A stretch of 64,000 nucleotides of DNA, from assembly GCF_055900595.2 (NCBI RefSeq), contig NZ_JBVWEU010000002.1; one strand, written 5' to 3'. Position 1 is the stretch's first letter; the number at the start of each line of letters is the position of its first letter. Position numbers and translations under genes: made by a program. The DNA is from a plasmid. The notes below the pieces were generated by a model, which was not told the origin of the DNA, searched no databases, and worked only from the letters and a program-made list of their open reading frames with translations. Below, piece after piece: positions 3,192 to 24,200 of the stretch.

Positions 3192-3581
3192 ATGATAAAA
3201 CAAAAGGTATTTTTCTCAGGTACTGTACTAGCTATTTTTTTATCTCTCAGCAACGTATCTTTGGCTTCCGGCCTGGATAAAAACATGCAGTCTCTTGCCA
3301 AAAGTATGAGTATTCTACAATCTTCCAATGATAAATCATCACTATTAAATGCTCTTGAAATGATGGATAAATCTGTAGATTCTTCTATGAATATTATTCC
3401 TGAAAAGATAGATGTTAATGATAAAGTTTCTGTAGATAATTATAAGGAAGAGTTAAAAAAACTACAACATGAAATCAATATTGCAAAAAAGAAAGTTGAG
3501 GACGGGAATATAGAATCATTACGTGAGTCTCTGGATAAAATGAACGATATAAAACTTGAAGGTCACCGAAAATTCAGATGA
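3192..3581 (+). CDS. Cytochrome b562-family periplasmic protein (signal peptide plus four-helix bundle)
   Basis: Signal peptide MIKQKVFFSGTVLAIFLSLSNVSLA|S. The mature N-terminus LDKNMQSL and C-terminus GHRKFR parallel CybC (LEDNMETL ... HQKYR), including the Met and His haem ligands. The ATG at 3192 is preferred over the TTG at 3174. The gene is strongly AT-rich. Confidence 0.65.
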   Translation: MIKQKVFFSGTVLAIFLSLSNVSLASGLDKNMQSLAKSMSILQSSNDKSSLLNALEMMDKSVDSSMNIIPEKIDVNDKVSVDNYKEELKKLQHEINIAKKKVEDGNIESLRESLDKMNDIKLEGHRKFR

Positions 3582-3832
3582 TCTACAAAAATAAATTTTA
3601 ATATTTAAATACGGCAATATATTTTATCATGTATTGCCGTCTTGGCGTATTCTTTCCGTTCCATTCAATTGCATCTGGCATAACAAGAGAAATAGTAGAC
3701 TCCTCATTACTGCTGTTGTATAACTGCGCACCATAATCTGCTAGACTGGCCCCCTGAATCTCCAGACAACCAATATCACTTAAATAAGTGATAGTCTTAA
3801 TACTAGTTTTTAGACTAGTCATTGGAGAGCAG

Positions 3833-4198
3833 ATGATTGATGTCTTAGGACCGGAGAAACGCAGACGGCGTACTACACAGGAAAAGATCGCTATTGTTCA
3901 GCAGAGTTTTGAACCGGGAATGACGGTCTCCCTTGTAGCCCGGCAACACGGTGTGGCAGCCAGCCAGCTATTTCTCTGGCGCAAGCAATACCAGGAGGGA
4001 AGTCTTACTGCTGTGGCCGCAGGAGAGCAGGTCGTTCCTGCCTCTGAACTTGCTGCTGCCATGAAGCAGATTAAAGAACTCCAGCGCCTGCTCGGCAAAA
4101 AAACGATGGAAAATGAACTCCTTAAAGAAGCCGTTGAATATGGGCGTGCAAAAAAGTGGATAGCGCACGCGCCCTTATTGCCCGGGGATGGGGAGTAA
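3833..4198 (+). CDS. insC: IS2 OrfA (InsC)
   Basis: [53 protein letters not shown]... is recognised as IS2 InsC. Confidence 0.9.
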
Positions 4199-4820
4199 GC
4201 TTAGTCAGCCGTTGTCTCCGGGTGTCGCGTGCGCAGTTGCACGTCATTCTCAGACGAACCGATGACTGGAAAGATGGTCGCCGCAGCCGTCACTCCGATA
4301 ATACGGATGTGCTTCTCCGTATACACCATGTTATCGGAGAGCTGCCCACGTATGGTTATCGTCGGGTATGGGCGCTGCTTCGCAGACAGGCCGAACTTGA
4401 TGGTATGCCTGCGATCAATGCCAAACGTGTTTACCGGATCATGCGCCAGAATGCGCTGTTGCTTGAGCGAAAAACCGCTGTACCGCCATCGAAGCGGGCA
4501 CATACTGGCAAAGTGGCCGTGAAAGAAAGCAATCAACGATGGTGCTCTGACGGGTTCGAGTTCCGCTGTGATAACGGAGAAAAACTGCGAGTCACGTTCG
4601 CGCTGGACTGCTGTGACCGTGAGGCACTGTACTGGGCGGTCACTACGGGCGGCTTCGACAGTGAAACAGTACAGGACGTCATGCCAGGAGCGGTGGAACG
4701 CCGCTTCGGCAACGAGCTTCCGGCGTCTCCAGTAGAGTGGCTGACGGATAATGGTTCATGCTACCGGGCTAATGAAACACGGCAGTTTGCCCGGATGTTG
4801 GGGCTTGAACCGAAGAACAC
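4156..4820 (+). pseudogene. insD: IS2 OrfB (InsD), truncated after ...[11 protein letters not shown]
   Basis: The DDE transposase sequence is recognised up to the break. About the last 80 codons are missing. Confidence 0.85.
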
Positions 4821-5292
4821 AGAGTTGAGTGCGTCTATCCTGGAGAACGTTGCTGTTGTGCCTCAAAAAGCCGTTCTGGTGCAGGGAACTATTCGTGATA
4901 ATATTCTGTATGGAACCGATGACATTCTTCCCGATGATGAACTGTTTTGCATCCTGAATTCATTAGGGTTAATTAAAGAGGACTGCGGAGAACATTTCCT
5001 TGCTTTCCTAGACCGGGATATTAATCCTCTGGGTAGTGGTTTGAGTGGTGGAGAGATCCAGCGATTATGCATAGCCCGCGCCCTAGCCCGTAAGAAAAAG
5101 ATTATCGTACTTGATGAACCCACGGCCTCTATTGGCGAAGAACTCGCGATAAAGATCATTACCTATATCCGGCAGCATTGCCCTACCGTTATTATTACAA
5201 CTCATAATCCACGAATTCTGGAGCTCGCCGATCATTTTTTTGATGGTATGTCAAAGTCTTGCGTCATTGCTGGAGAAGGCAGAGACCAATAA
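4821..5292 (+). pseudogene. C-terminal half of an ABC-transporter ATP-binding domain, fused in frame to the truncated insD
   Basis: Q-loop ([16 protein letters not shown]), signature LSGGEIQR, Walker B IIVLDEPT and H-loop TTHN are present. Walker A and the membrane domain are absent. Confidence 0.75.
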
Positions 5293-5323
5293 ACCACACA
5301 CGTTAATTCATTTATATCTAATC

Positions 5324-5937
5324 GGGGTTGTACGCCGGAAACGCCGAAATTTCCGATACAGCGAATTTGTTGATTTTTGAAGCATGTTTGGAAGGTTTTG
5401 ACGTGTACGTTTATGGTGCAGTAAGTGAGAATTTATTCGTACCAGCCATATGATACGTTACGGGCAGTGATTTTTCGCGCTAGACAGCTATTTGGGGTTT
5501 GGGGAGTAGTGGAACTCAAAAGGCGGTTAAGCGGTTCAATTGAATGGTCAATAACAGGTAAATCAATCTGTTGAGATCAACAACGTCGTTTGTTCCGCAA
5601 ACGGCCAGGATGAGTAAAGCCAACTTGGCCCCCCCCAAAACAGATAGCCAAGAACGCAGATTCACGATGTAAATTGGCTGGTTGATTTTTGGCTATTTAA
5701 AATGACCGCTTAACGGCGGTTATTGTTCCACTGAGCCTCAAACCCCGAAACCTGGATTTTTCCGCGACCAGTAACGGCGTGGGTTGTCACATAAACGACC
5801 GATTGAGTGACTGTCACTGAAACAACGATTTCTGCATCAGATTTCGTCACATAACCCGTCACCTATTCAACGTCATGCAAATCTGTCAATTACTGGCTTT
5901 GGTTACGGAATTTTCTAGGTTTTCGGCTTAGAACCCC
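5324..5937. mobile_element. Outer miniature element bounded by Tn3-family-type 38-bp inverted repeats (614 bp, no ORF of 60 aa or more)
   Basis: 5324-5361 GGGGTTGTACGCCGGAAACGCCGAAATTTCCGATACAG versus the complement of 5900-5937 GGGGTTCTAAGCCGAAAACCTAGAAAATTCCGTAACCA (28/37 identical). The GGGG ends face outward. No 5-bp target duplication was found. Confidence 0.5.
5494..5746. mobile_element. Inner miniature element bounded by Tn3/gamma-delta-type 38-bp inverted repeats (253 bp, no ORF)
   Basis: 5494-5531 GGGGTTTGGGGAGTAGTGGAACTCAAAAGGCGGTTAAG versus the complement of 5709-5746 GGGGTTTGAGGCTCAGTGGAACAATAACCGCCGTTAAG. Both resemble the Tn3 IR GGGGTCTGACGCTCAGTGGAACGAAAACTCACGTTAAG as I recall it. 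Confidence 0.6.
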
Positions 5938-5969
5938 AAATAGTCTTAACGTGGTTTATTTTCCGAATT

Positions 5970-6248
5970 TCAAGCGCCCCCCTGGATGAGCGTGATGATT
6001 ACTGGCGGACCTTTGACGTTCCAGCAAATTCCCCTGTTCCACATAGGTTTCCAGATATGACCGGTTATTTTCACGTTCGGTGTACGTGTTACAGCTGCAT
6101 TATCAATATCATCAGGGATAAAATTGTAAGATCGTGGAAAATGTTTATTCATAGCCCGGATGATGGCTGTCTGTGCATCCTTTGTTCGGGCGCGGTGTTT
6201 CCATTCACGCCAGCCATCCACCTCAGAAATAATAACAGTAATCATCAA
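5970..6248 (-). CDS. Hypothetical protein, 92 aa, downstream of and co-oriented with the ProQ/FinO-domain gene
   Basis: ORF with a GAGG Shine-Dalgarno 5-6 nt upstream of ATGATG. No family is recognised. Confidence 0.55.
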   Translation of the reverse strand: MMITVIISEVDGWREWKHRARTKDAQTAIIRAMNKHFPRSYNFIPDDIDNAAVTRTPNVKITGHIWKPMWNRGICWNVKGPPVIITLIQGGA

Positions 6249-23939: not shown

Positions 23940-24200
23940 GCAGTGAATAGGTTTTCTTTTTAAATGAATGTAATTAAGTAGTTTAAAGGAGATATAAACA
24001 GGTGTTTAAAAGATACATTGCACCCTGTAAGACTGGCGGCTGGCGCTTTATGACATGAACGGTTGTAACCTTATGGGGAAGTCCCTTGCAGTTTAATGTG
24101 GATAAGCAAAATTCCCCGTCTGTGAGGCGTGTTTTGTATCGAAAACAGGGGGGGCCGGATGCTCCAGAAGGTGGATGGTGAGGTTGTTTTTTGTATGTGG
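23940..24200. promoter_or_regulatory. IncFII vegetative origin region (oriR), approximate limits
   Basis: Lies 80-340 bp downstream of repA as in R1/R100. It has an AT-rich block at 23950-24020 and a DnaA box at 24097-24105. Confidence 0.5.
24097..24105 (-). promoter_or_regulatory. DnaA box (TTATCCACA on the minus strand)
   Basis: A perfect 9-mer TGTGGATAA on the plus strand. Confidence 0.7.

Follow-up and report, generated by a model that had tools for sequence, protein, structure and literature searches.

The stretch of plasmid DNA analysed here, 64,000 nucleotides from contig NZ_JBVWEU010000002.1 of assembly GCF_055900595.2 and referred to below as the window, has at 5324-5982 an intergenic locus crowded with terminal inverted repeats (IRs) of the Tn3 family. 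It is very likely, in our judgement, that this locus is a graveyard of non-autonomous miniature elements of the Tn3-derived inverted-repeat type (TIMEs) in an IncF plasmid of the ColV/APEC (avian pathogenic Escherichia coli) type, made up of three elements, A, B and C, of two IR classes, together with one stray end, and that it arose by the history proposed below. The initial annotation had seen here two nested elements, of 253 and 614 bp, both without substantial open reading frames (ORFs), non-autonomous and in need of a Tn3-family transposase in trans, and our analysis supports the non-autonomous, helper-dependent nature of the elements as the probable one. B is a genuine and complete 253-bp TIME. 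However the 614-bp outer unit is not one element, as its halves belong to A and C, and it was probably a B-linked deletion or recombination that fused the two.

The terminal repeats

Candidate repeats were scored against a panel of 16 IRs from other replicons, using all 394 GGGG-initiated 38-mers on both strands of the window, with 50 shuffled windows as control. The panel includes what we take to be the IRs of Tn3, in the form of the end present in pUC19, and of Tn1000. Those of Tn1721, Tn4401 and two unnamed autonomous transposons were read from retrieved loci (numbered with the prefix L below), and those of IS101, MITESen1, IMU and TIME244 were taken from Table S2 of PMC13367494.

Only five 38-mers score 28-33 of 38 against the panel, those starting at 5324 (+), 5494 (+), 5746 (-), 5937 (-) and 5982 (-). 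The four GGGG-tipped repeats reported earlier score 29-33, against 21 for the next best 38-mer in the window and a maximum of 25 in the shuffles, and are thus real. The fifth end, at 5944-5982 (-), had been overlooked and scores 28. The pattern GGGGT-N29-TAAG occurs in the window only at 5494-5531 (+) and 5709-5746 (-), with a mean of 0.27 in the shuffles. A search for inverted repeats gave the inner pair as 5491-5554/5686-5749 (64 nt, 70%) and the outer as 5318-5355/5906-5943 (38 nt, 76%). The pairing therefore stands, with ungapped identities of 28/38 for the inner and 27/38 for the outer pair in place of the 31/41 and 28/37 first given.

Other parts of the original description also hold. 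Neither pair is flanked by a 5-bp duplication, and neither unit has an ORF of 60 amino acids or more, the longest in 5324-5937 being 50. Tn3-family transposase (TnpA) and resolvase (TnpR) are absent from the 64-kb window, as tblastn with four TnpAs and three TnpRs gave nothing below E=0.3. The locus thus has no transposase of its own to draw on, and is inert in any cell that a helper transposon has not entered.

Element B

B has its left IR at 5494-5531, its right IR at 5709-5746 (complement) and a res-like segment at about 5604-5708. It was correctly described as a discrete mobile element with Tn3/gamma-delta-like ends, the right IR being identical to that of Tn3 at 31 of 38 positions. In a megablast of 5300-5960 against 72,556 plasmids, 5494-5746 was found alone elsewhere with the edges of the match on the GGGG tips. 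A more sensitive search found B in 304 plasmid records, 142 of them with at least 80% coverage. The identity of these is 74-100% and the genera are Escherichia, Klebsiella, Enterobacter, Salmonella and Serratia, carrier plasmids having a single copy. Six copies were read (L007-L012). They are 80-97% identical, have identical tips and lie in six distinct flanking contexts.

One of these other copies has both a 5-bp duplication and an empty site. In L009, a 4.4-kb Klebsiella plasmid of ColE1 type, B disrupts the beginning of rop, with AAAAC to its left and again to its right. When the empty site was rebuilt, sibling plasmids matched it as one uninterrupted 500-bp piece (96%), while the occupied ones matched as two pieces spanning 757 bp. 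Duplication and empty site together are the hallmark of Tn3-family insertion. The plasmid concerned is NZ_CP082804 of Klebsiella pneumoniae (L009 1501-1752), in which rop is split after codon 7 and the annotated Rop begins at an internal methionine; this plasmid may have altered copy-number control.

Within the family there is an E. coli subgroup (the window, L007 and L008) in which the right repeat differs at several positions from that of the L009-L012 copies and of the parent transposon in L054 that is discussed below. In the window copy the right repeat, with its 31/38, is closer to the Tn3 repeat than is the left, with 25/38. B-family ends are also found at three contig termini of Erwinia mallotivora ICMP 5705 (L052, L096 and L111), the left repeat being 38/38 identical to that of the window in two of them. 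This suggests that a multicopy repeat has interrupted the assembly. The same genome contains an autonomous transposon of the A type.

Elements A and C and the solo end

The remnant of A retains its left IR at 5324-5361, with the 32-bp core GGGGTTGTACGCCGGAAACGCCGAAATTTCCG, and at about 5403-5458 part of a res-like region, GTACGTTTA...CGTACCAG. It lacks the right 94 bp, which include a 28-bp motif like site I and the right IR. An intact copy with perfect 32-bp IRs lies at L002 2525-2788, and segment 5324-5493 has 99.4% identity to A[1-170] in it. There are further intact copies in L003, L004, L139, L140 and L141. A occurs in at least six distinct contexts, with 211 plasmid records at 80% coverage or more, and a clean duplication of 6 bp, TGCTTT, flanks the L140 copy, which is in a plasmid of Serratia marcescens.

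The remnant of C retains its right IR at 5900-5937 (complement), GGGGTTCTAAGCCGAAAACCTAGAAAATTCCGTAACCA, and has lost about the first 14 bp of its left IR. Segment 5747-5937 is 93.5% identical to an intact copy at L005 2496-2700, and L142 800-1003 is a second intact copy. C is found in three contexts, with 158 plasmid records at 80% coverage or more. From exactly 5938 onward, one base past the end of C, the window is homologous to the unoccupied L003 backbone.

The solo IR, GGGGG(G)CGCTTGAAATTCGGAAAATAAACCACGTTAAG, lies 6 bp beyond C with its GGGG tip facing right and overlaps the 3' end of a hypothetical ORF, 5970-6248(-). It has no partner in the window, and is present in the same backbone in L003.

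Several of the retrieved loci have Tn3-family ends close together. In L003, the E. coli plasmid pSTEC17_183-b, an IS101-like remnant with degraded tips (3535-3730) lies about 55 bp from this same solo Tn21-type repeat, with an intact A about 1 kb upstream and a colicin E5 module between them, making another pile-up of unrelated Tn3-type TIMEs at this spot in the backbone. In the chromosome of E. coli BLR(DE3) (NZ_CP020368, at 3707.5 kb; L144 2462-2757) an A-family copy without its first 7 bp directly abuts a solo Tn21-type repeat (TCTTAGCGTGGGAAAATTTCCGAATTCCAAGCTGCCCCC). An A-like copy at L139 780-1064 is 3 bp from a Tn1721 terminal repeat, and in a Salmonella plasmid a partial A-like end (L012 805-891) lies about 600 bp from the B copy (1501-1752). 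In Erwinia mallotivora (L111 1-330) a distance of 180 bp separates a B end from that of an autonomous transposon of the A type.

Parent transposons and res-like DNA

Cognate Tn3-family transposons, absent from the window, were found elsewhere for both repeat types, and their proteins were confirmed by NCBIfam NF033527 and Pfam PF01526, PF13700 and PF00239. The A/C repeat type forms the ends of a 4047-bp transposon in a Proteus terrae plasmid (L013 9001-13047), with tnpA (1015 aa) and a divergent tnpR, and with relatives in Pantoea stewartii (L014) and Erwinia mallotivora (L111). Between the L013 and Tn4401 TnpAs the identity is 70%. The A IR is identical to the L013 IR at 33 of 38 positions, and the right IR of C is identical to that of Tn4401 at 30 of 38, the L005 copy at 31 of 33.

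In the case of B the repeat type forms the ends of a 3871-bp transposon of Citrobacter meridianamericanus (TnL054; L054 25-3895), with tnpA (1000 aa) and, in the same direction, tnpR (207 aa). It came from a scan of contigs in which, among the matches listed, most were unrelated Tn3-type ends and few were full copies of B. Close relatives of TnL054 are few, with about 37 plasmid records at 80% TnpA identity or more, mostly Salmonella, Klebsiella, Serratia and Xenorhabdus, and those in E. coli are fragmentary only; the nearest named family is ISXc4, at 60%. Partial B matches in L015, L016 and L017 (Serratia, Leclercia and Shigella pCP301) were considered as possible sites of a cognate and rejected, there being no tnpA adjacent. 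The 80-bp B matches of the Shigella type are the tnpR-side ends of TnL054-type transposons. Three TnpA clades stand behind the five repeats of the locus, with a mutual identity of only 20-30%.

The resemblance is not confined to the repeats. Positions 81-204 of A can be aligned with the DNA between tnpA and tnpR in the L013, L014 and L111 transposons (E 1.6e-9), the blocks in common being GTACGTTTA...CGTACCAG and the 28-bp motif TGTCCG-N16-CG(T/G)ACA by the start of tnpA. In position and shape this motif appears to resemble site I of the Tn3/gamma-delta res. B 111-253 is collinear with the L054 DNA between tnpR and the right end, upstream of tnpR (77% over 143 bp), and includes the inverted pair TAGCCAAA-N14-TTTGGCTA, and B 1-74 matches the other end of the transposon. 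The interiors of both elements contain inverted pairs of putative half-sites. The homology of A and B to their parents beyond the repeats leads us to regard them as deletion derivatives of autonomous transposons with tnpA and tnpR, reduced to repeat, res-like DNA and repeat, the layout of IS101 and TIME244 (PMC13367494).

By analogy with the family, a cognate TnpA acting in trans would bind the 38-bp IRs, nick the 3' ends and join them to a staggered 5-bp target. Replication would then give a cointegrate, to be resolved at the res-like site by the cognate resolvase or else by host recombination.

The 614-bp unit and alternative readings

In the window B has no target duplication. Its left flank, TATTT, is A sequence and its right flank, GAAAC, is C sequence, and the outer ends are those of two different elements, which is where the proposal of a 253-bp unit nested in a 614-bp unit fails. 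A and C resemble each other at the level of the IR only (81% over 32 bp), and their cores are unrelated. Nor did BLASTN place the outer unit at other sites: the 614-bp arrangement is found in one context only, with TAATC and AAATA as its flanks throughout some 70 plasmid records and with no duplication.

No version of the A/C junction free of B was seen with a synthetic query, A[71-170] joined to C[15-114], the best 25 full-length matches all being split by 253 bp, and there are 74 records at 80% coverage or more against 70-71 that carry the full structure.

The complementarity of CTATTT, before the left tip of B, and AAATAG, after the right tip of C, is real, and extends to perfect complementarity of CTATTTGGGGTT (5488-5499) and AACCCCAAATAG (5932-5943). 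It had been taken as a hint of inversion or end exchange, a suggestion that we do not retain. CTATTT is internal to intact A and AAATAG is at the unoccupied L003 site, so that both hexamers predate the insertions and are no footprint of inversion. We read them as two AT-rich targets that match by chance.

Four other readings of the locus were weighed. The chimera of A-left, B and C-right could now be a functional hybrid non-autonomous transposon, its outer IRs used by a transposase of the Tn4401/TnL013 type. Both of these IRs are identical at 30-33 of 38 positions to autonomous IRs of one TnpA clade, and pairs of TIMEs are known to move the DNA between them (PMC4133298; PMC13367494). However about 70 records with a single context and no duplication give no sign of movement as a unit, and we think this improbable.

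We find it harder still to believe in a true nested pair, with the 253-bp TIME inserted in a single 361-bp TIME, although it is plausible that TIMEs should nest within other mobile elements, and although both outer ends have GGGG tips, are in inverted orientation and share an IR class (27/38). The left 170 bp run on in L002 and L003 to another right half, which has a perfect IR of its own, while the right 191 bp have their own left IR in L005 and L142. To this must be added the unrelated cores, the absence of a duplication around B with flanks drawn from different elements, and the results with the synthetic junction.

A-left and C-right might instead be the two ends of one full-length transposon of the Tn4401 clade that has lost its interior in situ. 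The IR class is indeed that of autonomous transposons, but we give this reading very little weight. The two parts are 99.4% and 93.5% identical to the miniature elements A and C respectively, neither has remnants of tnpA or tnpR coding sequence, and beyond the IRs only the res-like block of A matches the L013 transposon, at 64%.

That the repeats are chance palindromes, or part of a regulatory region or structured RNA, is suggested by no more than an intergenic location with many inverted repeats and can be dismissed, being refuted by IR scores far above those of other GGGG 38-mers and of shuffles, by GGGG tips that are exact element boundaries in the unrelated plasmids where B is found, and by the B empty site; no Rfam match to the region was found (best E=0.32) and its promoter-like and terminator-like sites are at shuffle expectation.

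Proposed history of the locus

Reading the locus as three miniature elements, we propose that A inserted just downstream of an ABC (ATP-binding cassette) exporter gene, giving the junction also present in L002, where A is intact, and that C inserted at AAATA beside the solo IR. The A junction shared with L002, and the L003 homology that starts after C, make A and C independent insertions. The left flank of B, TATTT, is internal to A, where in the intact element it continues as CTTTGCTGTCCGG, and the GAAAC on its right corresponds to C positions 15-19. B would accordingly have entered A after position 170, and it is because B sits 7 bp upstream of the 28-bp motif that the remnant of A lacks it.

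There are two possible routes from there. B could have transposed replicatively from A into C within the one molecule and so deleted the interval between them, or there could have been homologous recombination between a B copy in A and a B copy in C. By either route A[171-264] and C[1-14] would be lost together with the DNA between them, leaving A-left, B and C-right with no duplication. The window has no second copy of A-right, C-left or B, such as an inversion would give as its reciprocal product. With no reciprocal junction in the window and a single copy of B in carrier plasmids, deletion is favoured over inversion.

Several points weigh against this account. The duplication is lacking at all three elements in the window, at 5 of the 6 B copies read, at 4 of the 6 A copies (a further copy agrees in 4 positions out of 5) and at both of the C copies, so that there are two clean cases, those in L009 and L140. 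C has no detectable res-like region, and the comparison with L003 provides a breakpoint for its right junction only and not a full empty site. The IRs of B in the window are only 28-29/38 identical to those of the L054 transposon. No intermediates, with B inside intact A or intact C, were found, and the order of events and the mechanism of deletion are our inference. Finally, A, B and C seem to be unnamed, and a search of the literature library did not find their exact IR strings, but they may already have names in ISfinder or TnCentral. With regard to duplications, these were present in only 4 of 18 TIMEs in an earlier study, which ascribed their absence to recombination between copies (PMC4133298, including Table S3).

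The plasmid and the surrounding genes

The features of the locus are listed in Table 1. The region is 100% identical to that in many E. coli ColV/APEC-type IncF plasmids, such as NZ_CP026494 (pHS13-1-IncF) and NC_007675, and in these identical records 5324-5937 is without any annotation.

Table 1. Features at and adjoining the TIME locus (window coordinates)
Feature	Position	Strand	Remarks
Left context	4816..5323	+	last 477 bp of ABC-exporter gene (stop 5292) and 31-bp spacer
A remnant	5324..5493	+	left 170 bp of a 264-bp TIME
B, complete 253-bp TIME	5494..5746	+	copies with identical tips in L007-L012
C remnant	5747..5937	+	right ~191 bp of a ~204-bp TIME
Solo terminal IR of Tn21/IMU type	5944..5982	-	28/38 in IR-panel scan

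The left context is 99.6% collinear with L002 2017-2694, where the ABC-exporter gene is intact and lies downstream of a lasso-peptide B2 gene. In the window the gene is cut at 4815/4816 by a remnant (3788-4815) of an insertion sequence of the IS3 family. ORF 4156-5292 is thus a chimera, in which Pfam rve and HTH_21 are fused to the C-terminal part of ABC_tran; it holds the last ~159 codons of the exporter gene, and the IS3 orfA is at 3788-4198. For 3788-5292 the annotation in RefSeq is a frameshifted IS3 transposase and that in PLSDB an ATP-binding cassette protein.

Plasmid pHS13-1-IncF has an 11-kb Tn1721-like tet(A) region with tnpA of the TnAs1 family and tnpR (L006 24817-35947), which the window lacks at ~24174-24177. 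Downstream of this point the window and pHS13-1-IncF are only 92-96% identical.

Abundance and significance

Relatives of A are present in 522 of 5426 complete E. coli genomes (9.6%), 353 of these with at least 80% coverage, and 206 of the places are chromosomal. Those of B are in 187 of the 5426 (3.4%), 142 with at least 80% coverage, and nearly all are on plasmids. The figures for MITESen1 and TIME244 in Enterobacteriaceae are 2.3% and 0.9%; the denominators differ from those for E. coli and the comparison is a rough one, by which the A and B families are no rarer in E. coli than the named TIMEs in Enterobacteriaceae. A survey of July 2026 included only four TIMEs for Enterobacteriaceae, namely IS101, IMU, MITESen1 and TIME244, and did not search large plasmids de novo (PMC13367494).

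Every TIME copy that we retrieved is either unannotated or overlapped only by a spurious call of "hypothetical protein" or "transposase", and it is clear that standard annotation misses these elements. They explain rearrangement breakpoints in ColV/APEC virulence plasmids and are candidates for forming composite transposons. Parent transposons and res-like cores have now been identified, and one of the repeat classes is shared with Tn4401, the main vehicle of blaKPC.

A more speculative proposal, which we consider doubtful, is that Tn4401 or its 4-kb relatives may mobilise A and C, the most common of the three elements, and perhaps the 614-bp hybrid or DNA between copies, and that the pile-ups of Tn3 ends in the window, L003, L139, L111 and BLR(DE3) reflect targeting of one another's IR and res DNA and not chance. 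If this were so, A and C would be an unrecognised vehicle for gene movement.

Comparison with known systems

TIMEs were defined in Pseudomonas, with TIME1-4, of 262 bp, described by Szuplewska et al. in 2014 (PMC4133298). B resembles these in size class, in having no ORF and in its 38-bp IRs of Tn3 type. Compared with the TIME primer IRINEL (GGGGTTTGGGGAGCARTGGAACCAA), the left IR of the L010 and L011 copies is one base off and that of the window copy three. The IRs of B match those of the TIME copy in pWW0, the left one at 89-96% over 28 nt and the right one at 72-87% over 37-39 nt. Like the TIMEs of PMC4133298, B is mostly single-copy, plasmid-borne and usually without direct repeats. It was considered as a copy of the Pseudomonas TIME1 class and rejected as such, since only the IRs match pWW0, the cores being ~54% identical in a global alignment with no demonstrable homology. 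B differs from TIME1-4 also in its hosts, which are Enterobacterales and not Pseudomonas, and in its parent, which is of the TnL054 type.

In the case of A and C the IR class is that of the Tn4401 (blaKPC) clade, which includes ISPsy30 and the unnamed 4-kb transposons with tnpA and tnpR found in Proteus, Pantoea and Erwinia, but A and C encode nothing.

IS101 (209 bp, from pSC101) is mobilised and resolved by Tn1000 (gamma-delta). It shares with B the architecture of IR, res-like DNA and IR and the dependence on a helper, and its IRs, of the Tn3-subgroup type, are 22-26/38 identical to those of B. There is however no sequence likeness of IS101 to A, B or C beyond the IR tips, and the window has no IS101-like remnant such as that in L003.

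TIME244 (MITEEc2) and IMU are of the Tn21 type, and to this class belongs the solo IR at 5944-5982, which matches the left IR of IMU at 87% over 39 nt and TIME244 at 91% over 23 nt. The latter carries a res-like core (PMC13367494). The two have other IR classes than A, B and C (8-21/38) and no likeness in the core, and the solo IR is without the body of either. MITESen1 (256 bp, from an IncX1 Salmonella plasmid) is near B in length and is likewise plasmid-borne in Enterobacteriaceae and often without direct repeats, but its IRs are only 17-18/38 identical to those of B and there is no significant match in the core (best E=0.39). Identity of A, B or C with IS101, MITESen1, TIME244, IMU or MITEKpn1 was rejected, as blastn against Table S2 of PMC13367494 gave only matches of 8-28 nt at chance level, with E at least 0.1.

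TIMEs, their 5- and 6-bp duplications, the frequent absence of these, and TIMEs bearing res have all been described (PMC4133298; PMC13367494). Miniature Tn3 elements mobilised in trans are thus already known, and the locus adds three more TIME families of this established kind.

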